A stretch of DNA of 42,815 bases. It comes from a virus (Duplodnaviria; Heunggongvirae; Uroviricota; Caudoviricetes). The notes under the pieces are model-generated. The model had not been told where the DNA came from. It saw nothing but the letters and a program-made list of their open reading frames with translations, and searched no databases. The DNA lies in IMG/VR virus record IMGVR_UViG_2630968533_000007, positions 1-42,815 of that record; one strand, 5' to 3'. This document shows positions 3,836-41,447 of this stretch, in pieces (positions within the stretch are counted from its first letter, which is position 1; every line of letters begins with the position of its first letter). A program made the position numbers and the translations under genes.

Positions 3836-4009
3836 GAAGCTATCGTAGGTTAGGCCCAAGGACAGCTTTAAGCGAGGAGCGGACGCTGAATTCGAATTCA
3901 TCGTAAAAATTTTTATGGCCAAGTAGCTCTATAAGGCCTTTCATTAAAGCTATCTTTGTCGCAAAGCTTATGCAAAAAGTTACTTTATCTTTAAATCTAA
4001 TAAGATAAC

Positions 4010-20403: not shown

Positions 20404-21090
20404 TTAGAAGTTCAGATTTTTCAGTGCATTCAGTGCAGAGCCCACATCCTCAGCGTCGCGCAGGGACAGTGCGCCATAGCCCCCGGCCATGAATGCTTTG
20501 GCCTGGGTACGGGAGAGTCCGACATCACGCAGGACTCTTTCGATTTTTTTCTGTTCGGGGATTTCCCCGCGGGCCAGCGCGTTCTTGACGTCGCTGATCC
20601 GCGCCTCGTCGTTAGACGGAAACGTCACCAGACTGACTTCCCAGAGGTCGATTTCTTTCAACAGAAAGGCTTCTTTGCTCCGGTCGTATTCCCAGTCTTT
20701 CAGGACGTACCCAATAGAAAGGCCGGTTAACGAACCGGCCTTCATGTGTGCATGTGCGCGTTTTGCGAGGGGATCATCATCAATAAGCAACCGTCCCCTG
20801 ACGTAAAGTCCGACATCGTCTTCCTTCATTTCAGTGTAAACACCGATGGGTTCATCCATGCGGTGCTGCCAGAGCAGCGCAGGTAACGCTTTTCTGTCAC
20901 TCCACGCCCGCAGGGAAGCAGCAAATGCCCCGGACATCACCACATCATCGTGGCTGTCCTTTACACCAAAGACGGAGCCATACCCTTCAAACTCACCGGA
21001 GTCACTGACAGATTTCAGACTCAGCGGTACATCAAGACGTTGTTTCGTCTGCATTGGCGTTATCCTTCTGCTTACCGGCTTTACTGCCAT
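20404..21090 (-). CDS. Prohead protease, HK97 family
   Basis: 228 aa between portal and capsid genes. Confidence 0.8.
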   Translation of the reverse strand: MAVKPVSRRITPMQTKQRLDVPLSLKSVSDSGEFEGYGSVFGVKDSHDDVVMSGAFAASLRAWSDRKALPALLWQHRMDEPIGVYTEMKEDDVGLYVRGRLLIDDDPLAKRAHAHMKAGSLTGLSIGYVLKDWEYDRSKEAFLLKEIDLWEVSLVTFPSNDEARISDVKNALARGEIPEQKKIERVLRDVGLSRTQAKAFMAGGYGALSLRDAEDVGSALNALKNLNF

Positions 21091-22273
21091 CGGAGGGTTT
21101 CGTGGTCATGTTCATCGGTGTGAGATAGACATCCCCACCGGGACGCGGATTCATATCTTCCAGGTCGCGGCAGTCATTGGGAGAGTAAATTCCCCAGTTA
21201 ATCCCGGTGGCGTAGGCTTCAAAACGGGACTTCATATCCCCGCGCAGTAACGCCCCGGCGTTAAATTTGGCGTAATAAACGCCCTGCTTACTTTTTCGTA
21301 CCAGTCCGGTGTTGATCCGCTGCTCAATGCGGGTCAGATACGGCACCAGTGAATAGTTGATAAATCCCAGCCCCAGTTCTTCGATATTGTTGAAGGTGGC
21401 ACGATCGGTGTTCTGCACCATGTGCAATGGCACACGGAACAGACGACAGATTTCTTCAAGCTGAAACTTGCGGGTTTCCAGGAACTGGCTGTCCTCGGCG
21501 TTCAGCGCCATCGACTTCCAGTCCAGCCCCATCTCAAGGATCATCGGGCGGTGAGCATTGCCAAGCCCGGTGTGACGCTCCTCAAAATCTTTCTTCAGGC
21601 GCTCATAAGCCTGATCTGACAGCGTCTGCTCTGTACGCAACACACCCGACGTCACCGCGCCATTGCTGAACAGTCTGGCCCCGTGCTCTTCGGTCGCAGC
21701 TGCCAGCGATATTGCCTCGCGGGCATAGGCGACGGGATTCAGCCCCACCAGTCCGTCCAGCGTCAGCGTACGCACATGCCAGATATCCTCCTGGCTCAGT
21801 ACATCCGTGGAGCCATCCGGGAATGTGACCTGATAGATCGGCTCCCAGCTACTGTTAAGCTTCGGTACCACACAGCCGGGATCGACGGGCAGCAGTTCAG
21901 CCACTTCGCCAAATGCTTTCACTTTGTAGGCGTAAAAGTTTCCCCGCAGGCACAGACAGGTGACCACCAGCTCCCAGAACTCCTGCGGCGTCATATAGCC
22001 ATTGGGATGCGTGGAGATCAGCTTATGCAGACGTTCGCCAGTGGCTCTCTGCTTCAGGCTGCCGTTCAGGTGATACAGGTTGCAGGGCAACATCCCGACC
22101 GACTCCGCCAGCACCCTGACGCAGGAAAAAACCGCCGTCAGTCGCATGGCCCTCTGGCTGCTGATCTGCTTTCCGGTATAGGTGTCGTATGACAGCCCGA
22201 TAGCATCCGCCAGCTCTGCTGGCGTGGTCACCGGTGCGTCACTTTTTCGTTGAAATAATCCCGAAAAGAACAC
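21032..22273 (-). CDS. Portal protein, HK97 family
   Basis: 413 aa downstream of terminase. Confidence 0.88.
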   Translation of the reverse strand: MFFSGLFQRKSDAPVTTPAELADAIGLSYDTYTGKQISSQRAMRLTAVFSCVRVLAESVGMLPCNLYHLNGSLKQRATGERLHKLISTHPNGYMTPQEFWELVVTCLCLRGNFYAYKVKAFGEVAELLPVDPGCVVPKLNSSWEPIYQVTFPDGSTDVLSQEDIWHVRTLTLDGLVGLNPVAYAREAISLAAATEEHGARLFSNGAVTSGVLRTEQTLSDQAYERLKKDFEERHTGLGNAHRPMILEMGLDWKSMALNAEDSQFLETRKFQLEEICRLFRVPLHMVQNTDRATFNNIEELGLGFINYSLVPYLTRIEQRINTGLVRKSKQGVYYAKFNAGALLRGDMKSRFEAYATGINWGIYSPNDCRDLEDMNPRPGGDVYLTPMNMTTKPSDGSKAGKQKDNANADETTS

Positions 22274-22455
22274 TATTTACCTCCACCAACAGACATCTGT
22301 GTACGGTCGAGATATCGCGCCACCAGCCACGACCAGAACAGGCACAACGCCCCGGCAACAACAAACCCCGCAGGGGGATAAATCAGCCAGGCACCATACG
22401 CCAGCAAAAGCACCCCCAGCACGCCCACCAGAGGCGCGAGAATCAGCATGATCAT
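22273..22455 (-). CDS. Small hydrophobic protein between terminase and portal
   Basis: 60 aa with two predicted membrane helices; stop overlaps the portal start. Confidence 0.35.
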
Positions 22456-22466
22456 AATTACCTCAG

Positions 22467-24200
22467 TTAAAGCGAGCGGATCCCGTAGGACTCAATGTGA
22501 TCAGACAGCGTGTCTTCTTTCTCGTACAGCATGGCTCTGCCAACCGCCATAATCAGCGCAACTGCACCATCGATTTTGTTTTCCGCCTGCTCTTTGACGG
22601 GCTTCACCACATCATCGTTACCCGGAATGGTTTTGCCGACCACGTTGCCGATACACCAGGTCATGATGGGATTGCCATCATGATGAAAGCGCCCCGATTC
22701 AATTGCCGCTTCCAGCTCTTTCATCGGGTCGGACATGTTGGTGTAGTTCTGAATGATGGTGATGGGATTCAGGTCTTCATCAGCAAGGTCATGTGACAGC
22801 CCGGTCGCCCCGAAGGGGTCGATGGGTGACTCGCTGACCGGGCTGATTTTGTTCGCCGCTTTGGCCTCTTCGAGGATGTAGCGATAATCCACCTCTGCAC
22901 CATCGGTAACGGTCAGGACGCCCATTTCCACCCATTTCTGAAAGCGTTCGGCTGTCCGGCGATCTTCATTTTTCTCGACGCTGTACACCGTGTCATACGG
23001 TACCCAGAAACGCGGGGCCACACTGTAGTAATGCGTTTTACCGTCAATCTCGCGGGTATAAAGTCGCGCCATGCTGTTCATATCCAGTTTACGCGCCAGG
23101 TCAAAGGCCAGAATGCACGGCTGCCCCTCGAATTGCTCAAGAGTCAGTGATTTATCCTCGCAGCTCTGCCAGCTCACCAGGTTGAAATACGCCGAACGCG
23201 CCGACACCCAGATATTGAGGTGTTTTGTTTTAAAGACGTTTGCCAGACGGGCGTTATTTTTCGCACGCTGTTGCTGACTTAACAAAAACTCACGGTAAAC
23301 CGACACCCCGATATTCGGGTTGGCTTTTTCCAGCACCTGTGGGTTGGTCCAGTCGTCACCTTCGTCAACGGTATAGATGATCCCGAACAGTTCATCGTTG
23401 GGTACCGAACCGTTGAGCATCTCGATAACTTCCCGCCGTTTGTCGTAGCACGGCCCCTCAATGTTGTACCCGGCAGTAGTAATGGCCCACATCAGTGGCT
23501 GACGTCGCGCCCCCATCCCGGTAAGCATCGTGGTGTAAAGCGCATCGGTGGCGTGCTCGTGATATTCATCCACCACCGCACAGTGGGGTGATGATCCATC
23601 ACCGGGGTTACCGATCAGCGGTTCAAACCGCGCGCCATCCTCCGGACGGTTCATGTTTGAGGCGTTAACCTCAATCCCGAACGCTTCCGTCAGCATGGGT
23701 GTGCGTTTACACATCAGTCGCGCCGGGCGAAAGACTTCCCACGCCTGTTTCTCTGTCGTGGCACCGGAATACACTTCCGCGCCAAACTCGTTATCACAGG
23801 CAAAACAATACAGGGCGACACCGGCAGAGATTGCCGATTTGCCGTTCTTACGGGGGATTTCGGTATACACCTCACGGAAGCGGCGCAGCCGGGAGCCTTT
23901 ATTGACCCAGCCAAACGCGCAGCAGATCACAAAGAGCTGCCACGGCTCCAGCGTGATGGGCATCCTCTTAAATGCCCACTCACCCTTGGTGTGCGGCAAC
24001 AGCTGAATAAATTTGGCGGCCCGTTCAGCCAGGTCCTTGTCGAAGCGGTAACGAAACGACTTACTTTTTTCCGCCATCAGGTCATCAAGATGGCGCTGGC
24101 AGGCCTGAATCACAAACTGGCAGGCCACAATCTTTCCCCGCACGACATCACGGGCATACTGATTGGCAGCATTTACGTTGGGGTAAGATTTCCGGCTCAT
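22467..24200 (-). CDS. Terminase large subunit
   Basis: 577 aa; ATPase and nuclease layout; follows the small subunit. Confidence 0.9.
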
Positions 24201-24691
24201 GATTCGATGATTTTCAGAAACGGGTTAGTGGCTTTCTTCTGCCCCGCCAGGCCTATCAGACGCTGGCGGCTGCTGGGGTCGAGTCCGAGCATTGCCCCCG
24301 TGCTGCTCATCTCGGACTCCTGTTCTTTCTTGGCGGTCAGCTCCGGGTTTTTGACCCTGCCGCCCATTGCGCCGGTGATGGTGTTGCCCTGGCTGGCAAT
24401 ATTTTTCACGGCACGTCGCCAGAACTCATAGGCCACGCACCACCGCTCAAGTACCGCCAGGTCAGTCACGCACAGCAGGCCCTGACCGCAGAGTTCTTTG
24501 GTTGTCAGTTGCCACATGATCGTGGCGAGAGGGAGATCTTCTTCTGCGAACCACTCCGGTGGCTCAACACCTTTGATGGGCGTAAAAACAGGTTCATCTT
24601 TGTTCAGGGCTCGCTTGCCGGGGTTTCCGGCCAGCGCCTTGCGCGCCGTTGGCTTGGGGCGACGCCCGGAACGCCCCGCCGTTCCAGCCAT
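24197..24691 (-). CDS. Terminase small subunit (P27-like)
   Basis: AGGAG site 8 nt before the ATG at 24691; stop overlaps the large-subunit start. Confidence 0.75.
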
Positions 24692-24817
24692 ATGCGGCAC
24701 TCCTGGTTAAATTTCATTTTTCGCGGGTATAAAAAAACGATGGGGCGGGCAGTCCGGAAGACGTCAGGTCACAGGGATTTGACCCGCCCCTCCCCCACAG
24801 ACAGTTGAGAATTATTA

Positions 24818-25168
24818 TCACTTTAACCGTTCACGGGCCGTCTTCGCCTTATGGCAGGGCCAGCACAGACTCTGCAGATTACTGTCGGCATCAGTGCCGC
24901 CATGCGCTTTAGGAACGATGTGGTCAACGGTTTTCGCCTCACGCACCACACCAGCATGCAGACATGACTGACATAAACCTTTGTCACGCTTCAGGACGCG
25001 CTCGCGGATACCGTCCCACTTCGAACCATAACCGCGCTGATGACGGGACTGGCCCGGCTTGTATTGCTTCCAGCCTTCGCCTTTGTGGCTTTCGCAATAG
25101 CCTGACGGGTCTGTGGTTGTAGAGCGGCAGCCGCGAACACGGCAGGCTTTTGGGATTCGTGGTGGCAT
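24818..25168 (-). CDS. HNH endonuclease (terminase-associated)
   Basis: Cys pairs and HIVP...H...N...CWPCH motif; AGAGGA site before the ATG at 25168. Confidence 0.85.
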   Translation of the reverse strand: MPPRIPKACRVRGCRSTTTDPSGYCESHKGEGWKQYKPGQSRHQRGYGSKWDGIRERVLKRDKGLCQSCLHAGVVREAKTVDHIVPKAHGGTDADSNLQSLCWPCHKAKTARERLK

Positions 25169-25318
25169 TGCATAATCCTCTTGGATGGTTCGCGTGCGAT
25201 ACGTGGCATCCTTCTCAGAATCGAATCGCACTCCACTCCGGTTTTGCCATAAACGATCTTTTATGCTTCGCTGGATGTAGTTGATAGTTGTTGAAACTCA
25301 ATGAACAGGAGTTCACAA

Positions 25319-25654
25319 ATGAATAGTTATGAATGGGAATGGCTTTTAAACAAAGATGACACCCTATGCTTTTTCCCCGTAGGCCATTCTGTAGAAGGTA
25401 ATTACAAAATTCACTTTGAGTTGAGCGGTAGTTGTAACCTTAGAGTCTCAGATGCTGAATGGCATGGTAAACCTGTACTGCTGTTCGAATACTTCGATGA
25501 AGATGATGACCGCCCTGCAATAATCGAAATATTAGAAACAACTACTACAACTGTGGAGGCGATGATCGGGCATCTGAATAGTATCGATAGTATTTACCAT
25601 GAACCGATTTACAAAGCGGTTTACGAGTGGGCCGTAAAGTTTTTCTATCGATGA
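25319..25654 (+). CDS. Hypothetical acidic protein, first gene of an AT-rich cargo cassette
   Basis: AGGAG site 7 nt before the ATG at 25319; opposite strand to all flanking phage genes. Confidence 0.5.
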   Translation: MNSYEWEWLLNKDDTLCFFPVGHSVEGNYKIHFELSGSCNLRVSDAEWHGKPVLLFEYFDEDDDRPAIIEILETTTTTVEAMIGHLNSIDSIYHEPIYKAVYEWAVKFFYR

Positions 25655-25697
25655 TACTTCGTTATCTTGCTGGCATTCACAATACCTTTACATACTA

Positions 25698-26324
25698 ATG
25701 ACATGCCAGCACAATACTGTCACTTACAACCGTTCGGATTACCTAGAGAAAAGTATGATTCAGGATTTACTGATCGAAGCAATTAGTCACGATAGGATGC
25801 ATAAAAAGTTAAATGAACTGAATTGCTACTTCTACAATCGCAAACATGAAACTCAAATACGTGATGAGTTAGTTGTTATTCTCAATCAAATCAGCACACT
25901 AACTGCTTTAAGTGAGCATCCAAAACTCGGTATCGGCGCTGTTGACATATCACTTTATAACCAGTCGATATTAACGTCTGAACATAATGGCAATGTTGCA
26001 ACCATCGAGATCAAACACCATTACCCAAAGGATTTACTTTATCGGCAAGTTCAAGAAGACATCATTTCCGATATTTCAAGAGTAATAGTTTCACCAACTA
26101 CACATTTTATCCATATAATCCAGCAAAGAACTATGATTAATACTCCTTCTTTTGGCCAAGTGAAATTCCTTGAACGTGATGCAAGTGATATCAGCACTTA
26201 TGTGCAATGCCTTGAAGAGCTAAGTTCCTTCCCCAGTATCTTTCATAAAAAAAGTATATGTATTGAGGTACTTGGTGAAATTATGTCGACATATACCTTT
26301 AACGTATATTCATTTGACAACTGA
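25698..26324 (+). CDS. Hypothetical protein, second gene of the AT-rich cargo cassette; possible PD-(D/E)xK-like motif
   Basis: 208-aa ORF (alternative ATG at 25755); segment GIGAVDISLY...VATIEIKHHY resembles a D...ExK arrangement. Confidence 0.45.
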   Translation: MTCQHNTVTYNRSDYLEKSMIQDLLIEAISHDRMHKKLNELNCYFYNRKHETQIRDELVVILNQISTLTALSEHPKLGIGAVDISLYNQSILTSEHNGNVATIEIKHHYPKDLLYRQVQEDIISDISRVIVSPTTHFIHIIQQRTMINTPSFGQVKFLERDASDISTYVQCLEELSSFPSIFHKKSICIEVLGEIMSTYTFNVYSFDN

Positions 26325-26345
26325 TTAATTTGACAATTTTATTGC

Positions 26346-26603
26346 TTAATGGTTAGTTCTCTCTGCATCTATTTTACGAATATCAGCTTTATCCCGATTG
26401 CAGTTAGCCAGTGCAGACAACAGACTCACATTCAGCTCCAGGCTGGCACCATAAGTCAGAGGATTTGGTATGAACGGTACAGGTGTTTCAGAAGTCAGAC
26501 TAGTCGGTAATGTTGTAGCCGGAGTGCTCACGTAAACTGTCCGCGTACTTCCGCAACCGCTCAGCAGCGGCAGCAGGCACAAGGCGTGCAGCACAACCAT
26601 CAT
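26346..26603 (-). CDS. Rz1-like outer-membrane spanin (lipoprotein)
   Basis: MMVVLHALCLLPLLSGC lipobox signal; overlaps the 3' end of Rz in another frame. Confidence 0.6.
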   Translation of the reverse strand: MMVVLHALCLLPLLSGCGSTRTVYVSTPATTLPTSLTSETPVPFIPNPLTYGASLELNVSLLSALANCNRDKADIRKIDAERTNH

Positions 26604-26880
26604 CCGCAACAGCCACTTTGATATCTTTCTGGGTTCTCTGTGACTCCAGTGCGATCTGCTGTTTTGCATGCTGGTTAACCTCTATAACTGTATTGACGAT
26701 TTGCAGTGATTGCAGGACGTTACGGGTAATGGCTGTTGCAGATTCAGCATTTTGTACAGCCTCATCAGCACGTTTCTTTTCGTGCTGATATTTGCTGTAG
26801 TAGTGGTTGGCAGACCAGATGAAAGAACCGATGACAGTAAAGAAGAATGCAGCGATAACCAGCTTATAGCTCAACTTCAT
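26500..26880 (-). CDS. Rz-like inner-membrane spanin
   Basis: N-terminal membrane helix then coiled-coil region; follows the endolysin. Confidence 0.7.
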   Translation of the reverse strand: MKLSYKLVIAAFFFTVIGSFIWSANHYYSKYQHEKKRADEAVQNAESATAITRNVLQSLQIVNTVIEVNQHAKQQIALESQRTQKDIKVAVADDGCAARLVPAAAAERLRKYADSLREHSGYNITD

Positions 26881-27340
26881 TTACCACCCCACCAGCCTCT
26901 TTAAATCGGGCAATCAGGTCACCGATTTTATGTTCATACTGACCGTAACCTGCACCAGGTAACGACGCCCAGATATTGCTGCAACGGTCGATAGCCTGAC
27001 GAATATCACCGCGATCAATCATCGGTAAAGCGCCACGCTCTTTAATCTGCTGCAATGCCACTGCGTCCTGGCTTTTGGGGGAGAAGTCTTTCAAACCAAG
27101 CTGTTTACGGTAAGCATCCCACCAGCGTGAAAGAAGCTGATAACGCCCGGCGGCTGTTGATTTGAGTTTTGGGTTTAGCGTGACAAGTTTGCGAGGGTGA
27201 TCGGAGTAATCAGTGAAGAGTTCACCACCGACAATAACGTCATAACCGTGGTTACGTGTCGGTTGTCGTCCGTTATCCGTTCCTTCTGACCAAGCCACCA
27301 TATCAAGGAAAGCTTTACGCTGGGAATTTAGTACCTGCAT
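26864..27340 (-). CDS. R: Endolysin, lambda R-type lytic transglycosylase
   Basis: ...NQRKAFLDMVAWSEGTDNGRQPTRNHGYDVIVGGELFTDYSDHPRKLV... is nearly identical to lambda R. Confidence 0.92.
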   Translation of the reverse strand: MQVLNSQRKAFLDMVAWSEGTDNGRQPTRNHGYDVIVGGELFTDYSDHPRKLVTLNPKLKSTAAGRYQLLSRWWDAYRKQLGLKDFSPKSQDAVALQQIKERGALPMIDRGDIRQAIDRCSNIWASLPGAGYGQYEHKIGDLIARFKEAGGVVNEVEL

Positions 27341-27343
27341 AAA

Positions 27344-27670
27344 TTACTCCTTAGAGCCACCAAATTTGTTACCGATTACTCGCATTGCAGCCCCACGAAT
27401 AGCATCGACACCGATCAGCCCCACCCCACCACCAATGGCAACAGAAAGTGATTTAGGCCATCCGACATACTCAAGAGCGGATGCAAAAGTCAGCGTCAGA
27501 GCGCCACAGAGTAGAATTTCGAGCGTTTTTCGCTTCCAGCCACCACCACCGCCAAAATAGGCGATGCGCAAACCAGCCATAACGATCGACATAATCACTG
27601 CACCCAGCGGTGTGTCTCCACGCCACCAGCTCTGGACCAAGTCCAGCCAGGTATTTGGGTTATGAGGCAT
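27344..27670 (-). CDS. Putative holin
   Basis: Membrane helices and charged C-terminus directly upstream of the endolysin; GAGGTGAGAG site before the ATG at 27670. Confidence 0.65.
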   Translation of the reverse strand: MPHNPNTWLDLVQSWWRGDTPLGAVIMSIVMAGLRIAYFGGGGGWKRKTLEILLCGALTLTFASALEYVGWPKSLSVAIGGGVGLIGVDAIRGAAMRVIGNKFGGSKE

Positions 27671-27712
27671 TTCGTCATCTCTCACCTCGCGATATTTGCG
27701 GGTGCTGTGTTG

Positions 27713-27739
27713 GAAATAAAAAGGCCACGCAACGTGGCC
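27713..27739 (-). terminator. Intrinsic terminator between the methyltransferase gene and the holin
   Basis: 7-bp GC stem ggccacg/cgtggcc with a 3-nt loop, followed on the minus strand by a T-run. Confidence 0.6.
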
Positions 27740-27746
27740 ACCAGAA

Positions 27747-28799
27747 TTATTTCCCCACCAGTTCACTTACCTCTTTCACCGTCTGATTAAACCGCTCTGA
27801 CTCAAGTTCAACACCTAACGCCCGACGTCCCAGCGCCATTGCTGCTTTTATTGTGGAACCGGATCCCATAAAAAAATCAGCAACCAGATCACCTGGTCGA
27901 CTACTGGCATTGATTATTTGCCGGAGCATATCCGCAGGCTTCTCACACGGATGTTTACCCGGGTAGAACTGAACGGGTTTATGCGTCCAGACGTCGGTAT
28001 AAGGCACGGAAACTGATACGGAGAAATAGCGCCGGAGAGTTTTAAACTCATCCAGCAATTCAGAATATTTGCGATTCAGTGAATCATAAGATGCCACCAG
28101 CTGGTGGTGTGGTTGTTCCAGTTGTTGTTCCTGAAACTTCTCTGCCGCTATACGGGAAAACAGTGCCTGTAACTTCCGATAGTCAGCCTCATTCGGCAAC
28201 TGCCACTGACTGGCACCAAACCAGTGGGAAACCATATTTTTCTTACCTGTGGCTTCGGCAATTTGTTTTGCCGTTATACCCAGTTCGGCACGAGCATCCC
28301 TGAAATACGATATCAGCGGTGCCATTATGTGCTGTTTGAGTTCCCTTTCTTTTGCCGCATAGCCGTCACTTTTGCCGCGATATGGCCCCTGGTAATGTTC
28401 AGCAAACAGAACGCGCTCTGTGGCAGGAAAATATGCGCGCAGACTTTCTTTATTACACCCATTCCAACGTCCGGACGGCTTCGCCCAGATGATATTGTTA
28501 AGCACGTTGAAACGTTCACGCATCATGATCTCAATATCAGATGCCAGGCGATGCCCACAGAACAGGTAAAGGCTTCCGGCAGGTTTCAACACCCGCCAGA
28601 ACTGGGCCAGACAGTGGTCCAGCCACTTAAGGTAATCTTCGTCCCCTTTCCACTGATTGTCCCAACCGTTGGGTTTCACCTTGAAGTAAGGCGGATCGGT
28701 AACAATCAGGTCAATGGAATCATCAGGCAGGGACTGAATAAAATGCAGGCAATCAGCGTTGATTAAATCAACACTGTTTATTTTTACAGTATTTTTCAT
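27747..28799 (-). CDS. DNA methyltransferase (N6-adenine/N4-cytosine, beta class), orphan
   Basis: DPPY motif near the N-terminus and FMGSGST AdoMet motif near the C-terminus; no adjacent restriction gene. Confidence 0.8.
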   Translation of the reverse strand: MKNTVKINSVDLINADCLHFIQSLPDDSIDLIVTDPPYFKVKPNGWDNQWKGDEDYLKWLDHCLAQFWRVLKPAGSLYLFCGHRLASDIEIMMRERFNVLNNIIWAKPSGRWNGCNKESLRAYFPATERVLFAEHYQGPYRGKSDGYAAKERELKQHIMAPLISYFRDARAELGITAKQIAEATGKKNMVSHWFGASQWQLPNEADYRKLQALFSRIAAEKFQEQQLEQPHHQLVASYDSLNRKYSELLDEFKTLRRYFSVSVSVPYTDVWTHKPVQFYPGKHPCEKPADMLRQIINASSRPGDLVADFFMGSGSTIKAAMALGRRALGVELESERFNQTVKEVSELVGK

Positions 28800-28949
28800 G
28801 GATCAGTAAGCGTAACTCTGGTAGGCTCACTCTGCTTTTGCGCTAAAGCAGTGGGCCGTGGTTCGCTTGTGACCAGTAGGCATGAGCGAATGGCTGGCAG
28901 GTGCTACCAACACCCACCAGCCGCCCATTTTCACAGCAGGAAACCGCCA

Positions 28950-29153
28950 TTACTGGCAGCGTCTGAATTTATTCCCGTACCCGCCGTTATCCTTCGCCAG
29001 ACCCGCCAGAACTAACTGAGTCAGTATTAACTGGCACCGGGCTTCGCTTACTCCGGTAGTTCTCGTCATCATGCGTGGCGTTACCCACTTGTCAGCAGGT
29101 AAGAAATGAAGGACTGCGGCGGCGGTTTCTGTCATATCTTGCTGTTTTAGCAT
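28950..29153 (-). CDS. Small hypothetical protein at the start of the late operon
   Basis: AGGGA site before the second ATG at 29153; possible helix-turn-helix segment. Confidence 0.35.
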   Translation of the reverse strand: MLKQQDMTETAAAVLHFLPADKWVTPRMMTRTTGVSEARCQLILTQLVLAGLAKDNGGYGNKFRRCQ

Positions 29154-29275
29154 GTCTTTTTCCCTTCTGGTTAACATGACATACCAATAACTCTTGTCTA
29201 AAAAGCCAGCAAGATAAAAAGTCAGTATTCACGACCACCAGCGTGTTTACTGTGCTGCACCAAGTTTACAGGTAC

Positions 29276-29293
29276 AAAAAAACCGCTCAGCGG
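29276..29293 (-). terminator. Weak intrinsic terminator (possible tR'-like site of a short late leader)
   Basis: Stem ccgc/gcgg followed on the minus strand by a run of 7 T. Confidence 0.3.
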
Positions 29294-29472
29294 CGGGTTT
29301 AAGTTGTGTGGCGAAGTAACCACTCTTAACACAGTAATCTAGAAAATGCGGACCGCGTTAGTGATTTTTATCTGTTTTTCCATTATTTTTTTGCCACACA
29401 GCTTAAAACGAAAAATAAAGCAGGCGTTGCCAAACCTCACGGTGACAGTTGGCTTAGAATGAGGACATATTT

Positions 29473-30492
29473 TTGGATAAGTTTGATGAGATTCATGTAG
29501 ACATTGAATCTGAGCAGCAAGCCTTCGATTTGCTTGAAAGCTATCTTGATGGTTATGGTTTACCTGACAGTTTAAGTTTCAACGGATGGCCAAACCTTAC
29601 CATCAGATTAACCGGTGAAAAATTCAACAGATCGCTAACACCTTCAGTTATGAAGGGATTTGTTGAAATGCAAGCTCAAATCAACAAATCATATGCCCTT
29701 GCCAAGTACGGTGTCCCTGACGTCCGCAAACTGACCAAAGAAGAACTTGATGCCCTAGAAATAGAAGTTACGGTAGAACAGGGTTCTTCAATAGTAGAAA
29801 TCAACATTGATGGCTTTTTAACCAAACTCACACAGGAACTTGTTGGTAAAATGAACGCAACTGAGATCATGTTTACTGTTCTCGGCGCAGCAGTCATCTG
29901 GGGCGGAGTAACAGTATTTAAACGGTTCTTGGACAACCGTAAAGATATTCGCCTTGCAGAAATTGCTAAGGATGGAGAGAAAGAACATCTCCGGACTATG
30001 CAGATCATGAGCGAGCAAGAAACTAAACGCCTGCGGGTTATTTCAGAAATGATTGCGGAAAAACCACTTCTCGATAACATGGACCGTATGTCGTATGACG
30101 CTAAAACCCAAATGGTCAAATCCTTTGTGCGTTCAGATAACGCTCAAATTGATGGCGTTACTATTGATTCTGAAATGGCGAAAGAGTTGGTTACGAATGC
30201 TCGTAGACGTTCATCAGAAATGAGGATTGATGGTATTTACCGAATTGAAGAAGTCAATAATACTGACCCAGAGAGTTTCAAAGTTAAGGTCCGACGCGTA
30301 GATACCGACCAACGTCTAACCTGCGTAGTTCAGGATGTTTTCCTTGATGAATCCGGAAACAAAGAAGCATTGCAGCGAGCTGAGTGGGAAAGAAAGCCTG
30401 TACATTTGAGCATTAACGCAAAACACGTCGATGGTGACATTAAGTCAGCAGTAATTCTCTATGTTCGAGATGTGGAACAAAAGCCCGAGTAA
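29473..30492 (+). CDS. Hypothetical single-pass membrane protein (cargo between Q and the late operon)
   Basis: 339-aa ORF with TTG start 7 nt after GAGGA; one hydrophobic helix (IMFTVLGAAVIWGGVTVF); convergent with Q. Confidence 0.5.
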   Translation: MDKFDEIHVDIESEQQAFDLLESYLDGYGLPDSLSFNGWPNLTIRLTGEKFNRSLTPSVMKGFVEMQAQINKSYALAKYGVPDVRKLTKEELDALEIEVTVEQGSSIVEINIDGFLTKLTQELVGKMNATEIMFTVLGAAVIWGGVTVFKRFLDNRKDIRLAEIAKDGEKEHLRTMQIMSEQETKRLRVISEMIAEKPLLDNMDRMSYDAKTQMVKSFVRSDNAQIDGVTIDSEMAKELVTNARRRSSEMRIDGIYRIEEVNNTDPESFKVKVRRVDTDQRLTCVVQDVFLDESGNKEALQRAEWERKPVHLSINAKHVDGDIKSAVILYVRDVEQKPE

Positions 30493-30500
30493 TCGGGCTT
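30481..30500. terminator. Bidirectional hairpin between the convergent 339-aa gene and Q
   Basis: Perfect 8-bp stem aagcccga/tcgggctt with gtaa loop, overlapping the stop of the 339-aa gene and 7 nt from the Q stop. Confidence 0.55.
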
Positions 30501-30506
30501 CAATAA

Positions 30507-30884
30507 TCAATCTTTAATTTCGGGGTCCATCTCTAGACTAATTTCCAGCATCGATAGGCAGCCATCAATAAACCCCTCAGCCATCTGTATCTCAATGCGT
30601 ATTAGTTTCTCATCCTTTTTACGAGCCTTGGCGAGCTTTCTTTTAGAGATACCGTATAGGTAATGGGCAACAAGAAGCGAATGTTCGTCCGGCCTTTTTT
30701 GCCTTAGACGAGCAAGACAACCTTCAATAATTAATGCATCACTATCTGAACATGCCTGACGTGTTTTGCTTGTATAGGGAAGAAGCCCTTTAAACCCAGC
30801 AGCTATAGGAGAATAGTCTACTCCTGAACTATCACTCGCCGCCCATGCTCCCCAACGATCCAGAACCATTTGAATATCACGCAT
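30507..30884 (-). CDS. Q: Late-gene antiterminator Q (phage 21/82-type)
   Basis: MRDIQMVLDRWGAWAA...IAAGFKGLL... matches the Q antiterminator family N-terminus; GGAGA site before the ATG at 30884. Confidence 0.7.
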   Translation of the reverse strand: MRDIQMVLDRWGAWAASDSSGVDYSPIAAGFKGLLPYTSKTRQACSDSDALIIEGCLARLRQKRPDEHSLLVAHYLYGISKRKLAKARKKDEKLIRIEIQMAEGFIDGCLSMLEISLEMDPEIKD

Positions 30885-30901
30885 CAACTTTCTCCACAAA
30901 A

Positions 30902-31897
30902 TCAGGCCAGCACGCCAATTGCCAGCGCACGATCGATAAAACGAAATATCAGCTCCAGCTGAGAGCCATACTTTTCTTCAAATACCACGGTATCCGCATG
31001 CAGCTCGTCGTGATGCTTTCTGCACAAAGGCAGCACGAAGAGGTCATGCGCTTTTGTACCCATTCCACCCTGACCGTGGCCTATCAGGTGGTGGGGATCA
31101 TCTGCAGGCTTTCCACAACATGCACACGGCTGCGTCTTAACCCAGCGCGTGTACTTTTCGTTAACCCAGCGGCGACGTTTGGGACGTAACATAAAAGACT
31201 CCGGCGACTCCGGATCCACTTTCAGCGCCAGCACCTTTTTCGCTTTATCCTGGATGATGCTGGTGGCAGGAACCGAAGGCACAAGGTCACTTTCCCGGGT
31301 GACAGACGGCACAACAGGCTTCGGTAATCTCAGTGCCTTACGGGCTGCGCTTTCCGGTAAGGCATCCGCCAGGTCATTACGAACCAGCCACCAGCACAGT
31401 TCCGGCATTGTCACAACGTGACTGTCATCAAAACCGAGATCCCGACGCACGACAGACAACACCCAGCGGGCACAGTTATCCGTTGCCATTGATTCCAGCC
31501 GTTCCGTGAATTGATCGCGCAGCTGGTTATCGCAGTGCCAGCACAGACGGATTGCGCCCGGAGCATGTCGCATTGTGGTCATGTTCTCGCTGTGCCAGCC
31601 GGAATGAGGCCACTGACAGCCTTTTTCACGAAGTAACCAGCTTTCAAGACATTCCACGCCACCAGCACGACGGATCACTGCCTCATTACGGAACACGGCC
31701 CGAACGGCAGGATCATCCGCCAGTGGTTGTGATGCCGCCGGAACGGCACCACTGGCAAAAGATGAATAACGTTCCGGCTCAGGCTCCAGCAGGACACGCC
31801 CCTGCATAAACAGGGGCATCAGCTCTGAACCAGGCCTGAATAATACGATCCCCATACGCGGGGCAATTTCAGGGGTCAGTAGTGCTCTCACGGTCAC
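30902..31897 (-). CDS. Phage protein with C-terminal HNH-like zinc motif (DUF968-like)
   Basis: C-terminal CACCGKPADDPHHL...CRKHHDELH motif; position upstream of Q. Confidence 0.5.
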   Translation of the reverse strand: MTVRALLTPEIAPRMGIVLFRPGSELMPLFMQGRVLLEPEPERYSSFASGAVPAASQPLADDPAVRAVFRNEAVIRRAGGVECLESWLLREKGCQWPHSGWHSENMTTMRHAPGAIRLCWHCDNQLRDQFTERLESMATDNCARWVLSVVRRDLGFDDSHVVTMPELCWWLVRNDLADALPESAARKALRLPKPVVPSVTRESDLVPSVPATSIIQDKAKKVLALKVDPESPESFMLRPKRRRWVNEKYTRWVKTQPCACCGKPADDPHHLIGHGQGGMGTKAHDLFVLPLCRKHHDELHADTVVFEEKYGSQLELIFRFIDRALAIGVLA

Positions 31898-34568: not shown

Positions 34569-35510
34569 TCACCCCCTGAATCCTGCCGGGATCTGGCTGT
34601 AGTCCACGTTGTCGTAACTGGCTTTGAAGTACGGGTCTTCGCGTTTTTCGGTGTACGTGCTGACGGACGGCGATAAGCGCAGGGAAAGCTCATCCCATTT
34701 TTCCCGCAGCTTCGACGGGCTGAGCACGTTACGGCACCAGAACGGATCGCGACTGACGCGGCTGTACATCTCGCAGATTTGTTTATGAGTACGACCATCC
34801 TGCACACACATCAGGCGAATTTCGTTTGCCCAGGCTGTCCAGTTCGGTTCTTTGGGACGAACCACCTCGCCGTCACATTCGGCGGCCTGCTCGTACAGGG
34901 CGATGATTTTTTTCCAGAGCCACTGTGCGCAGGTCAAATCATCCTGCGTTCCCCACTGGCGCTTTTTAGGGCTGAATACAACCGCATCAGGATGGCGAGT
35001 TAAAAACTCCTGTTCAGCCGTCTGCGTGTCCGGTTGCGAAGCGTCCGGACGAGAAGTTTTTTTATCTGACGGATCATGTTTTGATTTTACTGACGGATCC
35101 CCGCCAGATTCTGACGGGTGAAAAACCGCTTTTTTGCCAGATTTCGACGCATCAAATTTTGACGGGTCAGATTTTGATGCGTCAGATTTTGACGGGTCAG
35201 AATCTGACAGTTGAGAAAATGCCGCTGCCTGAAGCTTCGCAACGTTAAGCTGATAAACATTCGACGCATTGCGGTTACCTTGGCGACGCGCCTTACGCGT
35301 TAACCAGCCTTCTGCTTCCAGCCGTGCGATAGCCGTTCTGACGGTACTCATCCCCGCGCCAATCTGACGGGCAATGGTTTCAATTGATGGCCAGCACACA
35401 CCTTCGTCATTACTGAAATCAGCCAGGCGGGCCATAATTGCCACGCTGGATAATTTCATGCCTGACGCAGCGCAACCATCCCATACATAGCCGGTTAATT
35501 TAGTGCTCAT
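34569..35510 (-). CDS. Replication initiator (O-like) with N-terminal winged-helix domain and embedded origin iterons
   Basis: N-terminal HTH segment; tandem 15-bp iterons inside the coding region produce the SKSDxSKSD peptide repeat; GAGGT site before the ATG. Confidence 0.6.
   Translation of the reverse strand: MSTKLTGYVWDGCAASGMKLSSVAIMARLADFSNDEGVCWPSIETIARQIGAGMSTVRTAIARLEAEGWLTRKARRQGNRNASNVYQLNVAKLQAAAFSQLSDSDPSKSDASKSDPSKFDASKSGKKAVFHPSESGGDPSVKSKHDPSDKKTSRPDASQPDTQTAEQEFLTRHPDAVVFSPKKRQWGTQDDLTCAQWLWKKIIALYEQAAECDGEVVRPKEPNWTAWANEIRLMCVQDGRTHKQICEMYSRVSRDPFWCRNVLSPSKLREKWDELSLRLSPSVSTYTEKREDPYFKASYDNVDYSQIPAGFRG
35064..35213. repeat. Putative replication origin iterons (about 8 copies of a ~15-bp unit, 5 in tandem)
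   Basis: Copies of cagattttgacgggt-like units at 35064, 35085, 35105, 35138, 35153, 35168, 35183, 35198. Confidence 0.7.
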
Positions 35511-36741: not shown

Positions 36742-37368
36742 ATGGAAACGGTTGGTCAGCGTATAAAAGCTCTGAGAAGAGTTACCGGAACGTCCCAGAA
36801 AGAATTGGGTAAATTTTGTGGAGTAAGCGACGTTGCTGTGGGGTACTGGGAGAAAGACATCAATACCCCTGGTGGGGAGGCACTTTCGAAATTAGCGAAG
36901 TTCTTCAATACGTCAATAGATTACATTCTTTATGGTGCTGAGTTTGAAGGCAAACTCGTCACAAACATGCGCAGAGTTCCTGTAATATCGTGGGTTCAGG
37001 CTGGGCAGTTTACTGAGTGCAGGGCAGCAGAAGTGTTTAGTGAAGTGGACAAGTGGGTAGATACATCATTAAAGATTGGTGATAACTCATTTGCATTAGA
37101 GGTTAAAGGTGACTCCATGACTAACCCTAATGGCCTCCCAACAATACCAGAAGGCGCAACAGTGATTGTAGATCCAGATGCAGAACCTCGTCATGGAAAA
37201 ATAGTCATCGCTCGACTTGATGGAACAAACGAAGCTACAGTAAAAAAATTAGTCATCGATGGCCCTCAAAAGTTTTTAGTGCCATTAAATCCTCGGTATC
37301 CCAACATCCCTATCAATGGTAATTGCCTTATCATTGGTGTAGTCAAAGGAGTTCAATACGAACTCTAA
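36742..37368 (+). CDS. cI: CI-like repressor (N-terminal HTH, C-terminal LexA-type S24 autopeptidase)
   Basis: HTH QKELGKFCGVSDVAVGYWE; C-terminal ...EVKGDSM...GKIVIARL...KKL with Ser/Lys dyad spacing. Confidence 0.85.
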   Translation: METVGQRIKALRRVTGTSQKELGKFCGVSDVAVGYWEKDINTPGGEALSKLAKFFNTSIDYILYGAEFEGKLVTNMRRVPVISWVQAGQFTECRAAEVFSEVDKWVDTSLKIGDNSFALEVKGDSMTNPNGLPTIPEGATVIVDPDAEPRHGKIVIARLDGTNEATVKKLVIDGPQKFLVPLNPRYPNIPINGNCLIIGVVKGVQYEL

Positions 37369-37615
37369 GACCTCTCTTCTCTAACTAAGGCACCGAACTA
37401 AGAAAAGTTTGGTGTTTTCTCTTGCCATAATAACTAAGTTAAGTTAGATTTTATATCAAAGATAACGAACAGGCAGGACGCCCACGAAGTAGCCGCCTGG
37501 GGCATATAAAGTCTAGGGTGATTCGTTAGCAACAAAAAAGCACCCTACAGGACGCTTAGCTCTTTAACAATCTGGTCCCCATCAACAAGTAACTGATAAC
37601 TTGAGGAGGTGTGAA

Positions 37616-37822
37616 ATGCACAAAACAGAACCCAAAATCGTCGCGCCCGGATACACAAATGAGGAAATTTACGAGTGGATGGCAAAGAAGCTGGCAGCTA
37701 TAAACCAGCTTCGTGAAGTGCTGTCTTATCGACAGGAAACAATAGACTCCTTAAAAAAACTGGATCAGGAAATCACGGTTTTATCACAGGATGTTACTTT
37801 AGATATTGTGCAGACAAATTAG
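37616..37822 (+). CDS. Small hypothetical protein, first gene of the leftward early operon
   Basis: Strong GAGGAGG site 6 nt before the ATG at 37616. Confidence 0.45.
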   Translation: MHKTEPKIVAPGYTNEEIYEWMAKKLAAINQLREVLSYRQETIDSLKKLDQEITVLSQDVTLDIVQTN

Positions 37823-38228
37823 GATCCCATTCATTTTCGTCAAAATCATCAAAGTGATGAATTTGTGATCTCCAGTCTCGATAATCTAAAAATTTCTGGG
37901 CGGTTACGCTTATTTTATCAAGTGTGAGTTCATCCTGAATTGAAAGAAGAAGTTCATCAAATTTCATCTCATTAATCTGTTTTGGCATCCAGTGATGCTT
38001 CATCAGAATAAGGTGAACCAGAGCCTTTTTCCCATTCAACTGATTATAGGGAGTGCCGAATTTCTTCCGGTGCTCATGTAAGACAAGGTCCAGAAGAGTA
38101 AGTAATGTTGCCCTTGATTCCACTTTGCTTATTTCGACTGATGACACTACTCCACTGATTTCAATGCCCCGATACTTTCCAACATTTTCACAGTGGGATT
38201 TGTACAGCGTGTAGATATTACCGGACAT
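37794..38228 (-). CDS. Hypothetical AT-rich protein, reverse-oriented cargo gene in the immunity-proximal region
   Basis: 144-aa ORF convergent with and overlapping the 3' end of the preceding small gene; direct repeats immediately upstream. Confidence 0.45.
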   Translation of the reverse strand: MSGNIYTLYKSHCENVGKYRGIEISGVVSSVEISKVESRATLLTLLDLVLHEHRKKFGTPYNQLNGKKALVHLILMKHHWMPKQINEMKFDELLLSIQDELTLDKISVTAQKFLDYRDWRSQIHHFDDFDENEWDPNLSAQYLK

Positions 38229-38243
38229 TTCTTTTCCTTTTGC

Positions 38244-38295
38244 GTTGTTGGGGATAACCAGATTAACCGAATCCTTGTTGTTGGGGAATAACCAG
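38244..38295. repeat. Two direct repeats gttgttgggg(a)ataaccag upstream of the 144-aa gene
   Basis: 38244-38261 and 38277-38295; a third degenerate copy near 38361-38385. Confidence 0.55.
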
Positions 38296-38559
38296 GTCCA
38301 CCTCGCCTGATGTGGCTAAAAGCAGGCACATAACAGCTAAGTATTTTTAACCAGAGAGAATCCTTAGCGTTGTGGTGAATGCGGCTCAGCGCACGCGGGT
38401 TAAGGTTGAGGCTGACAGTCGACCTTCTGTGGATACCCACCCGTCTGGTGTGCAACCTTCGCCAGGCACCGGGAGGCACCCGGCACCACAACTTTATGCT
38501 GTGTGTAGTCCTGGAGGTACCAGTTTGTACCCTTGCTTCCGGCTGGTACCGTCCTTTTT

Positions 38560-38648
38560 ACAAAACAGAGAAGAGCATCACCGGACGACGGGCTCATAAC
38601 CCAATCCATCCGGGCGGCTGCCACCGCAGGTGTTCTTCTCTGTTTTGT
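38560..38648. repeat. Perfect 15-bp inverted repeat with 59-nt spacer (potential long stem-loop) in an ORF-free region
   Basis: acaaaacagagaaga (38560-38574) and its exact reverse complement tcttctctgttttgt (38634-38648). Confidence 0.6.
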
Positions 38649-38772
38649 GGAGAAACTAACCGCCCCTACGGGGGCATTCATGGAAATGTAATTGACTCAA
38701 TAATCGCCGGACGGTGAGGGCTTCCTTTTACCCGAATTCAGCGCGGTGCAGCGCATATACGTGGAGAACAAA

Positions 38773-39309
38773 ATGTCATTTATTAAAACTTTTTCCGGGA
38801 AGCATTTTTATTATGACAGGATAAATAAAGACGACATCGTTATTAACGATATCGCGGTTTCCCTTTCAAATATCTGTCGCTTTGCAGGACATCTTTCACA
38901 CTTCTACAGTGTCGCCCAACATGCGGTGCTTTGCAGCCAGCTGGTGCCGCAGGAATTTGCTTTTGAAGCTTTAATGCATGATGCAAAAGAAGCATATTGC
39001 CAAGACATCCCCGCACCACTGAAACGACTTCTTCCTGACTATAAACGTATGGAAGAAAAAATAGACGCCGTAATCCGTGAGAAATACGGGTTACCTCCTG
39101 TTATGAGCACGCCAGTGAAATATGCCGATCTCATTATGCTGGCAACCGAACGCCGCGATCTCGGGCTTGATGATGGCTCTTTCTGGCCTGTACTGGAAGG
39201 TATCCCGGCAACAGAGATGTTCAAAGTGATTCCACAGGCACCGGGCCATGCCTACGGGATGTTTATGGAACGTTTTAACGAGTTATCGGAGTTACGCAAA
39301 TGCGCATGA
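38773..39309 (+). CDS. HD-domain phosphohydrolase
   Basis: H...HD metal-binding arrangement (RFAGHLSH...EALMHDAKE); GGAGA site before the ATG at 38773. Confidence 0.6.
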   Translation: MSFIKTFSGKHFYYDRINKDDIVINDIAVSLSNICRFAGHLSHFYSVAQHAVLCSQLVPQEFAFEALMHDAKEAYCQDIPAPLKRLLPDYKRMEEKIDAVIREKYGLPPVMSTPVKYADLIMLATERRDLGLDDGSFWPVLEGIPATEMFKVIPQAPGHAYGMFMERFNELSELRKCA

Positions 39310-41371: not shown

Positions 41372-41447
41372 TGGTGCCGATAATAGGAGTCGAACCTACG
41401 ACCTTCGCATTACGAATGCGCTGCTCTACCAACTGAGCTATATCGGC
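41372..41447 (-). tRNA. thrW: tRNA-Thr (anticodon CGU)
   Basis: Minus-strand sequence gccgatatagctcagttggtagagcagcgcattcgtaatgcgaaggtcgtaggttcgactcctattatcggcacca folds as a cloverleaf with CGT anticodon and encoded CCA. Confidence 0.92.

Follow-up and report, generated by a model that had tools for sequence, protein, structure and literature searches.

A conserved structured RNA block in the probable early-left leader of SfV/e14-type lambdoid prophages

Results

A conserved block lies between the repressor gene and the early-left genes

We analyzed the virus record IMGVR_UViG_2630968533_000007 of IMG/VR over its positions 1 to 42,815 (referred to below as the window, 42,815 nt). This is a lambdoid prophage (SfII/SfIV/SfV/e14 type) that is inserted at tRNA-Thr beside proA. 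Between the small first gene of its early-left (PL-direction) operon and yfdR there is a gene in reverse orientation, encoding a protein of 144 amino acids (aa), and a stretch of about 450 bp without credible open reading frames (ORFs), which an earlier reading of the sequence alone (the original prediction) had singled out for its repeats. Our results suggest that positions 38298-38673 of this stretch are probably a non-coding plus-strand RNA leader of the early-left operon, with the working proposed in the Discussion. The block is conserved, forms a structured RNA on the plus strand, carries no coding signal, and contains RNA 3' ends that have been mapped in Escherichia coli K-12.

Searches with megablast and blastn showed that 38298-38673 is 77-99% conserved in SfII, SfIV, SfV, mEp460_4F5, ST64B and the K-12 element e14. 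The sub-block 38512-38673, with the terminator and the inverted repeat described below, is also found in Stx2a/Stx2c phages, mEp460, cdtI and others. Prophages of no fewer than 10 enterobacterial genera carry the block, 3001 of 5426 complete E. coli genomes contain it at least in part, and the 475-bp segment 38298-38772 is 100% identical, with equal gene order, in a prophage of E. coli UPEC_U013. In every annotated relative the block is on the same strand as the repressor gene, after it and before the first early-left genes, a position that we verified in SfV, SfIV, mEp460, ST64B, e14, phiES15, F1055 and LLS. At the place of the 144-aa gene, relatives carry other reverse genes or none at all (SfV, e14, mEp460, F1055, Buttiauxella), indicating that the block is a mobile module independent of that gene.

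RNA 3' ends in K-12 coincide with module boundaries

Published Term-seq data for uninduced E. coli K-12 list RNA 3' ends on the ymfH/xisE/intE strand (Adams et al. 2021, PMC7815308 supp. 1). The first, MG1655 1201423(-), lies after ...CACAUAACAGCUA and corresponds to window position 38339, the start of the Rfam match described below; this abundant 3' end marks the end of M1, the conserved element that opens the block. The second (MG1655 1201257, ...UGCUGUGUGU, window 38506) falls in a single-stranded stretch, and the third (MG1655 1201195, ...CCCUUUUUACAAAACAGA, window 38569) lies 10 nt past a U-run, inside the 5' arm of a long stem. The ends thus coincide with the predicted module boundaries. 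The first and the third are 228 nt apart, which is in the size range of the small RNAs (sRNAs) STnc100 and PasD. The third fits either imprecise termination or cleavage of a read-through RNA within the stem.

The 5' part of the leader is an STnc100/PasD-type domain closed by a terminator

At the gathering threshold, Rfam found only tRNA-Thr (41375-41447) in the window. In a permissive scan, STnc100 (RF02076) matched in full length at 38339-38561 (38.4 bits, E 2e-6, model positions 1-206 of 206), and an STnc100/PasD-type structured RNA domain was placed accordingly at 38340-38559 (+). Among relatives, the same model gave sub-cut-off scores for phiES15 (40.6 bits) and ST64B (35.1 bits). Both STnc100 and PasD are sRNAs of prophages and are visible on Northern blots (PMC5331693, PMC8550237, bioRxiv 10.64898/2026.05.13.724894). 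Hfq-dependent stability has been demonstrated for PasD only, for which many RIL-seq partners are reported (PMC8550237), and a 2026 preprint describes the function of the Pas sRNAs as not yet elucidated (bioRxiv 10.64898/2026.05.13.724894).

The exact 22-mer CACCGGGAGGCACCCGGCACCA (38467-38488) is present in at least 120 IMG/VR viral contigs, which form about 13 sequence clusters with little else in common. Representatives of 11 of these 13 clusters are canonical copies that score 54-131 bits on the STnc100 model, and the two leader-type clusters (L023 and L091; L numbers denote the collected loci) stay below its cut-off. Inside the 22-mer lies the core hairpin P4, CCGGG-AGGCA-CCCGG (38469-38483, +), which abuts the 9-bp closing helix P1 (38369-38377/38484-38492, +). 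P1 forms 7-9 bp in 30 of the 31 members examined, and P1 and P4 together are 90% paired, compared to 34-55% in slid controls. The P4 stem switches from CCGGG/CCCGG to GGUGG/CCACC in four sequences. MAFFT puts one gap wrongly in the core hairpin of four LLS-type sequences, so that the covariation of P1 and P4 is understated there. The closing helix was compared in curated sequences; an automated finder gave mostly noise across loci.

Leader-type copies, comprising those of the window, e14, ST64B, phiES15, LLS, mEp460 and F1055 types, share one layout: the closing helix (8-9 bp), AAU, a small hairpin, a variable middle, a hairpin by the 3' strand of P1, the single-stranded conserved UGCUGUGUGUAGUC (38497-38510, +) and a terminator. 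Judged by the Rfam criterion, the domain is no STnc100 member, although its architecture and its invariant motif make it a clear relative found in a new context. We also observed that canonical STnc100 genes are often arranged in tandem (three copies in L029) and lie directly beside phage tRNA genes or isrI (L029 342-1253; L015 8044-8560; L018 1121-1794; L035 7683-8235). The closing helix of the family ends ...GGCACCA and is stacked on a 5-bp hairpin, a putative tRNA-like layout.

The intrinsic terminator (38513-38559, +) consists of a GGAGGUACCAG...CUGGUACCGUCC stem followed by UUUUU, and it ends exactly where the inverted repeat starts. A GC-rich hairpin followed by U5-U7 occupies the equivalent place in ten of ten relatives, whose stem sequences are unrelated. 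The original prediction correctly stated that the inverted repeat is not followed by a U-run, but in concluding that the repeat was no simple terminator it overlooked the GC-rich hairpin and U-run immediately before the repeat.

A boxA-like motif marks the leader-type copies

Directly 5' of the closing helix the window contains a degenerate boxA-like motif, AAUCCUUAG (38359-38367, +). Leader-type relatives read AGUGCUCUYUYCG at this place, 1-3 nt before P1, and two of them have UGCUCUUU, the core of the rrn boxA. The motif resembles the boxA of rrn and lambda and is a putative site. It is without counterpart in the canonical, promoter-driven STnc100 genes, in which, by eye, a TTGACA/TTGACC-17-TAAATT promoter stands a few bases before the closing helix. 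The degenerate third repeat of the original prediction is present as a sequence (38364-38380), but it is made up of the boxA-like motif and the 5' strand of the closing helix.

These features bear on a different explanation, in which the whole leader is a cis-acting site for processive antitermination of the nut or put kind. The boxA-like motif would recruit NusB/NusE, the STnc100-like domain would replace boxB or put, polymerase coming from PL would ignore both the terminator and Rho, and the sRNA would be a by-product. The restriction of the motif to leader-type copies and its agreement with the rrn core in two relatives would suit such a site, as would the lack of an evident N homologue, the length of the untranslated stretch (~950 nt) and a separate conserved element just downstream of PL. 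On the other hand, the motif of the window itself is degenerate, the canonical family consists of free-standing genes with a promoter and a terminator that accumulate as discrete RNAs, and no sequence similarity to the HK022 PL region was found. Moreover, Nus/boxA complexes are known to act against Rho, not against intrinsic terminators. We consider antitermination by the whole leader a possibility to be taken seriously, though a minor one.

The inverted repeat is the outer stem of a three-way-junction hairpin

The perfect 15-bp inverted repeat with a 59-nt spacer that had been noted in the sequence was confirmed at 38560-38574/38634-38648. It is unique in the 42.8-kb window, and none of 60 Markov resamples contained such a repeat. 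Covariation, RNAalifold and a covariance model identify the region as a three-way-junction hairpin (38560-38648, +) with an outer stem of 20 bp (38560-38579/38629-38648, +), an arm 1 (38581-38613, +) with the tip GGG-CUCAUAA-CCC (38590-38602), and a variable arm 2 (38614-38627, +).

Covariation was assessed in 27 distinct copies, taken from phages and from one-genome-per-species matches labelled Escherichia/Shigella, Citrobacter, Kosakonia, Enterobacter, Mixta, Phytobacter, Erwinia, Klebsiella, Buttiauxella and Pseudescherichia. Standard pairs fill 96.1% of the cells of the junction structure, compared to 40-51% with the partners slid. Compensatory changes were seen at 11 pairs, and 0 of 500 shuffles reached the observed values. 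RNAalifold independently predicts an equal three-way-junction fold. The suggestion that the inverted repeat might form a structured RNA is therefore borne out, as it is a real covarying RNA helix. Non-Watson-Crick cells read on the plus strand comprise 51 G.U and 4 A.C, indicating that the helix forms in plus-strand RNA and not in DNA or minus-strand RNA; a DNA palindrome is ruled out by this bias.

The covariance model (R1) found the junction element once in the window, with 118 bits on the plus and 42 bits on the minus strand. Rfam gave nothing on the hairpin at E<=10 except noise (MIR1094), so that it matches no Rfam family. The 20-bp helix is long enough to be a substrate of RNase III, and one of the K-12 3' ends is situated 10 nt into its 5' arm.

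Arm 1 resembles the anticodon arm of the initiator tRNA

The most conserved part of the junction element is CGACGGGCUCAUAACCCAAUCCA. Positions 38589-38602 are identical over 14 nt to the anticodon arm of the E. coli initiator tRNA-fMet, whose sequence was verified as that of the four-copy tRNA-Met gene. The GGG/CCC pairs are invariant, CUCAU is kept in 26 of the 27 sequences, and A37 is changed to U in five. The 13-mer of the arm has no other occurrence in 1.29 Mb of collected loci. There is no cloverleaf: the Rfam tRNA model (RF00005) had no match in the window region at E<=10, and in 19 related loci ARAGORN detected no leader tRNA, its only two genes being in L146, far from the leader.

In 0.92 Mb of canonical STnc100 late-region loci, the covariance model found no full-length copy of the junction element. 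A lone weak match covered the inner arms, beside phage tRNA-Arg/Asn genes, and keeps a CAU loop on a G-C stem. In L122 (756-822, minus strand), a smaller three-way junction with the outer stem GGCCUG/CAGGCC and a CAU-containing loop on a G-C stem is separated by 6-7 nt from the end of a phage tRNA-Arg gene; this junction may be related to the leader hairpin and derive from a tRNA. In relatives the end of the leader hairpin is followed after 26-47 nt by the start codon of the first early-left gene, which encodes a YfdP-like protein of 120-125 aa or a recombination-associated protein of 305 aa.

Given this likeness, the long hairpin might act chiefly via its initiator-tRNA-like arm, either as a decoy for an anticodon nuclease that attacks tRNA-fMet (VapC-type) or as a translational operator. 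In the operator version, the arm would occupy the P site of the 30S subunit, or its CAU would pair with the start codon that opens the first early-left gene. The identity includes the three G-C pairs that are typical of initiator tRNA, and the strict conservation of the arm, the uniqueness of its 13-mer, the CAU loop in the distant relative by the phage tRNA genes and the fixed spacing to the next AUG are all in favor of this explanation. However, neither ARAGORN nor the Rfam model sees a tRNA, a single copy per transcript makes a poor decoy against thousands of tRNAs, and A37 is not kept throughout. It should also be noted that the likeness was spotted post hoc, and that the chance of such a match among about 40 anticodon arms is not negligible. 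An action chiefly through the arm thus appears unlikely to us.

The likeness can be taken one step further. The junction hairpin could belong to a class of phage leader RNAs not described so far, in which the anticodon stem-loop of the initiator tRNA is copied exactly and serves to engage a component that normally recognizes tRNA-fMet, be it a nuclease specific for this tRNA or, together with IF3, the P site of the 30S subunit. We put this forward as a speculative proposal with a low prior. If true, early-left expression, or escape from host defence, would be coupled to the state of translation initiation, and together with the upstream domain the PL leader of the SfV/e14/ST64B type would be an RNA-only regulatory device in phages that lack N.

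Direct repeats and M1 border a separate cargo gene

Two direct repeats had been reported upstream of the 144-aa gene, and both are present, GTTGTTGGGGATAACCAG at 38244-38261 and (G)TTGTTGGGGAATAACCAG at 38278-38296, matching in 18 of 19 positions with one indel. They are copies of a hairpin module (38244-38297, listed on the plus strand) that may act on either strand. Exact 10-mer repeats of such a kind are not rare by chance, with a mean of 2.8 per resampled window; the weight of the repeats derives from their conservation and not from their rarity. Indeed, distant relatives also have two copies, namely phage F1055, Klebsiella phage Kp4866-6 and a Mixta prophage. A single hairpin copy is found in e14 (GCUGG/CCAGC), L024 (CUUGG/CCAAG), phiES15 (ACUGG/CCAGU) and SfV (CCUUUU/AAAAGG). 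The hairpin stands just 5' of M1, its stem covaries among relatives (UCUCG/CGAGA also occurs), and its loop reads YUGUDGGGGAAYA.

M1, CCACCUCGCCUGAUGUGGCUAAAAGCAGGCACAUAACAGCUA (38298-38339, +), starts at a mosaic boundary at 38298. It is conserved in 26 distinct sequences, including prophages that have no reverse gene. In a Buttiauxella prophage (L140), the PL-proximal element abuts M1 with neither the small gene nor the reverse gene between them. This minimal architecture indicates that the ancestral leader consisted of RNA elements throughout and that the small gene and the 144-aa gene were inserted into it. Past M1 and ahead of the boxA-like motif, four leaders contain the T-arm-like pieces GGUUCGAUUCC and GGUCCGUUCAAUUCGGAC, at which ARAGORN called no tRNA; they belong to F1055, Kp4866-6, a Citrobacter prophage and an Erwinia prophage (L009 ~2700-2790; L010; L135; L147 4436-4530).

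The reverse gene itself (37794-38228, minus strand, ATG start) was described correctly as an AT-rich ORF of 144 codons that overlaps the small gene. The overlap with the 3' end of 37616-37822 (+) is 29 nt, and the GC content is 0.35-0.42, compared to 0.45-0.55 in the flanks. It is a cargo (moron-like) gene, separate from the leader beside which it stands. Its product is a phage-associated protein of the ECs1072 family (NF033230, PHROG 5286), of which it is a full-length member (157.8 bits against a curated cut-off of 70, residues 4-144); the family itself is without known function. An exclusion or defence role, as implied by the original prediction, would be hypothetical: no Pfam match and no detectable fold were found for the protein, and PADLOC models at E<=0.1 matched neither it nor the 68-aa and YfdR proteins. 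A terminator-like hairpin with a U-run on the minus strand (37538-37557, consensus scan) is the likely end of its transcript; in that case, the transcript would run antisense to the small gene 37616-37822 over the full length of that gene. In SfV and phiES15, apparent unannotated small reverse ORFs with AAGGA ribosome-binding sites are seen at the position of the reverse gene.

As an alternative, the original prediction had offered a regulator-binding array; in this view, the repeats and the inverted repeat would serve as DNA sites (operators or iterons) through which a regulator controls the 144-aa gene. The direct repeats are indeed located just upstream of the start of this gene, and in e14 (L006 ~3990-4030) and phiES15 (L008) M1 taken as its reverse complement gives TTCACC/TTAGCC-16 nt-TATGCT/TATACT, a plausible sigma-70 promoter toward the reverse gene (ymfI in e14), judged from the sequence. 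In the window, however, this -10 element is absent and reads ACCTGG instead; a consensus scan called no promoter for the 144-aa gene on the minus strand, and none that was convincing could be picked out by eye in the window. At a distance of 330 bp, the inverted repeat lies past a plus-strand terminator, and an excess of G.U over A.C is not expected of a DNA site. In addition, the block is kept whichever reverse gene stands beside it, and also where there is none; both the G.U bias and the Term-seq data place its transcription on the strand opposite to the 144-aa gene, and it is tied by the fixed spacing given above to the first early-left gene downstream. Control of the 144-aa gene by these sites is therefore not upheld, and we regard the DNA-site explanation as improbable.

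The block lacks a coding signature

The description of the region as ORF-free was right in substance: ORFs of 112 aa (+) and of 93 and 114 aa (-) exist, and they are not conserved as coding sequences. Public annotation places K-12 ymfH (L006 4076-4387), SfIV_34 and SfIV_35 over the block. SfIV_35 is a minus-strand ORF running across the STnc100-like domain and SfIV_34 starts inside the domain; both are annotation artefacts. When the window is compared with e14 or ST64B, each codon phase has a similar share of the substitutions (11/9/10 and 17/21/17), the compared copies differ by indels of 1, 20 and 21 nt, and among copies that are 95-99% identical single-base length differences switch the frame. 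On these data we reject the YmfH-like ORF as a real gene. That the stretch encodes a protein (YmfH in K-12, SfIV_34/SfIV_35 or N-terminally extended YfdR homologues), as the 93-114 aa ORFs on both strands and the ymfH annotation might suggest, is thus highly improbable, the more so since the 112-aa ORF has no NCBIfam family, PGAP marks the ORF as 'frameshifted' in the identical UPEC_U013 prophage, and the conservation is explained by RNA covariation. In a screen, a ymfH clone was reported to trigger the retron-Sen2 toxin RcaT, which is a point in favor of a protein; as ymfH has no coding signature, the active agent in that clone may be the leader RNA. In the literature on ymfH and the sRNAs of ST64B we found nothing specific.

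Genes and elements around the leader

Upstream of the leader, the plus strand carries a cI-type repressor gene (36742-37368; helix-turn-helix and S24 peptidase) and a PL-like promoter (37422-37450, consensus scan). Directly 3' of this promoter is a conserved element, ACAGGCAGGACGCCCACGAAGUAGCCGCCUGGGGCAUAU... (37466-37530), with 78-97% identity in phages of Pectobacterium (ZF40), Yersinia, Pantoea, Citrobacter, Klebsiella and Salmonella; it may be a second leader RNA signal, perhaps put-like. The first PL gene (37616-37822, +; phrog_1744) encodes a 68-aa product without a Pfam or NCBIfam match.

Past the ORF-free stretch the plus strand contains, in this order, yfdR, DUF551, yfdT, xis, int and the tRNA. 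A small GC hairpin (38661-38676, +) follows the junction hairpin, and relatives have a hairpin of other sequence at the equivalent place, just 5' of the first early-left ribosome-binding site. The 111-bp yfdR-proximal spacer (38662-38772, +) was defined by blastn against the SfV and SfIV loci and their annotation. Its equivalent in these phages sits between the yfdQ and yfdR homologues, indicating that the prophage lost yfdP-yfdQ and that the leader was fused to yfdR. At the deletion junction (38662-38673), 12 nt belong to both of the matching segments. The leader is followed first by a gene (38773-39309, +) for a YfdR-type HD 5'-deoxynucleotidase (phrog_318, 1e-108), which PGAP names yfdR in the UPEC_U013 prophage (100% identical). 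At its N terminus, the phrog_318 profile is longer by about 96 positions, which are absent from the real YfdR.

Two further observations concern other parts of these phages. Tandem direct repeats of 12-30 nt lie inside the replication-protein gene (35156-35190), where they give the peptide repeats SDxSKSD; they may be iteron-like origin repeats. C4 antisense RNA and isrK score above the Rfam cut-off in mEp460 and ST64B (L004 823-1011; L005 909-1097), in the immunity region and adjoining a gene of the Rha/antirepressor type, and the window is without both at the gathering threshold.

Discussion

Our preferred reading of 38298-38673 is a non-coding leader that would serve two transcripts. M1 would be a processing or hairpin element, and a 5' end would be cut at its boundary. 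Transcripts halting at the terminator would be released as an sRNA of the STnc100/PasD kind, made constitutively or early and split from the early-left genes by the terminator, which would keep the downstream genes (yfdR to xis and int) off in the lysogen. Polymerases that read through, presumably having started at PL after induction, would be helped by the boxA-like site, which would also shield the ~950 nt of untranslated RNA from Rho. In the read-through mRNA, the long hairpin would be the 5' leader; it could be cut by an RNase III-type activity and/or bound via the tRNA-like arm, and would thereby affect the stability or translation of the first early-left gene. The tRNA-fMet-like junction hairpin may be a new component of such leaders.

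Several results weigh against this reading. The match of the STnc100 domain falls short of the Rfam gathering cut-off (38.4 vs 47 bits), and several relatives (mEp460, F1055 and LLS types) are not detected by the model at all. The boxA-like motif of the window is degenerate, neither an antiterminator protein nor a put-like similarity was found, and no sigma-70 promoter for the RNA was found in the window, either by consensus scan or, convincingly, by eye. A search of the window for the complement of UGCUGUGUGUAGUC returned only the site itself. A 3' end 10 nt beyond the U-run, as seen in K-12, is unusual for simple intrinsic termination, and e14 has mutations in the tRNA-like loop and the core hairpin, so that the K-12 data stem from a decaying copy. 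Finally, in the window and four close copies the distance from the hairpin to yfdR is 120 nt. This spacing is due to the deletion, which means that the native downstream partner of the hairpin is missing here.

A block that is present in more than half of the complete E. coli genomes, including K-12 e14, and that is annotated as hypothetical proteins thus behaves as a structured RNA. The STnc100/PasD family is extended to a second genomic setting, an early-left leader with a boxA-like motif, and this setting suggests what the fold may do. In addition, an RNA motif with an initiator-tRNA-like arm is defined with the support of covariation. Taken together, these results provide a starting point for the question of how lambdoid phages without N control xis/int and the early-left genes.

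The nearest known system is the STnc100/PasD family. The window shares with it the closing helix UGGUG/CACCA, the AAU and small hairpin that come next, the variable middle, the exact CACCGGGAGGCACCCGGCACCA motif, an intrinsic terminator at the 3' end, a length of about 200 nt and the occurrence in lambdoid prophages of Enterobacteriaceae. In contrast to the canonical members, its second hairpin is UGCG-GCUCAG-CGCA and not CCCC...GGGG, and instead of a TTGAC-type promoter directly 5' it has the boxA-like motif and a longer P1. Canonical copies are located in the late region, beside tRNA genes, near Q/LpxR and downstream of stx2, and often in tandem, whereas the domain of the window lies in the early-left leader after cI. 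The junction hairpin next to it is missing from the canonical loci.

The PL leader of lambda contains nutL, then an RNase III-sensitive hairpin, then the start of N. The window resembles it in having a putative Nus-type signal, a long double-stranded hairpin and a ribosome-binding site in that order, but both N and boxB are missing, a 220-nt structured domain and an intrinsic terminator stand between these parts, and the sequences are not similar. HK022, also lambdoid and without an N-type protein, uses put for RNA-only antitermination, an element of two stem-loops (about 70 nt) that does not include a terminator; as in HK022, the leader RNA structure of the window could act on the transcribing polymerase. 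A sequence comparison between window positions 37440-37620 or 38229-38772 and HK022 21000-31500 gave no blastn match longer than 13 nt. StxS, the short PR'-tR' transcript of Stx phages that acts as an sRNA, is likewise a prophage sRNA that is made when transcription terminates in an operon leader, the operon itself being read through only once induction has occurred; it differs in belonging to the late operon, in its Q-dependent read-through and in its unrelated sequence. The thrS operator and other mRNA leaders mimic the anticodon arm of a tRNA and, like the window, have a hairpin in the 5' leader that copies a tRNA anticodon stem-loop. In the window, however, the mimic copies the initiator tRNA, and it is placed inside a three-way junction that does not adjoin the ribosome-binding site.

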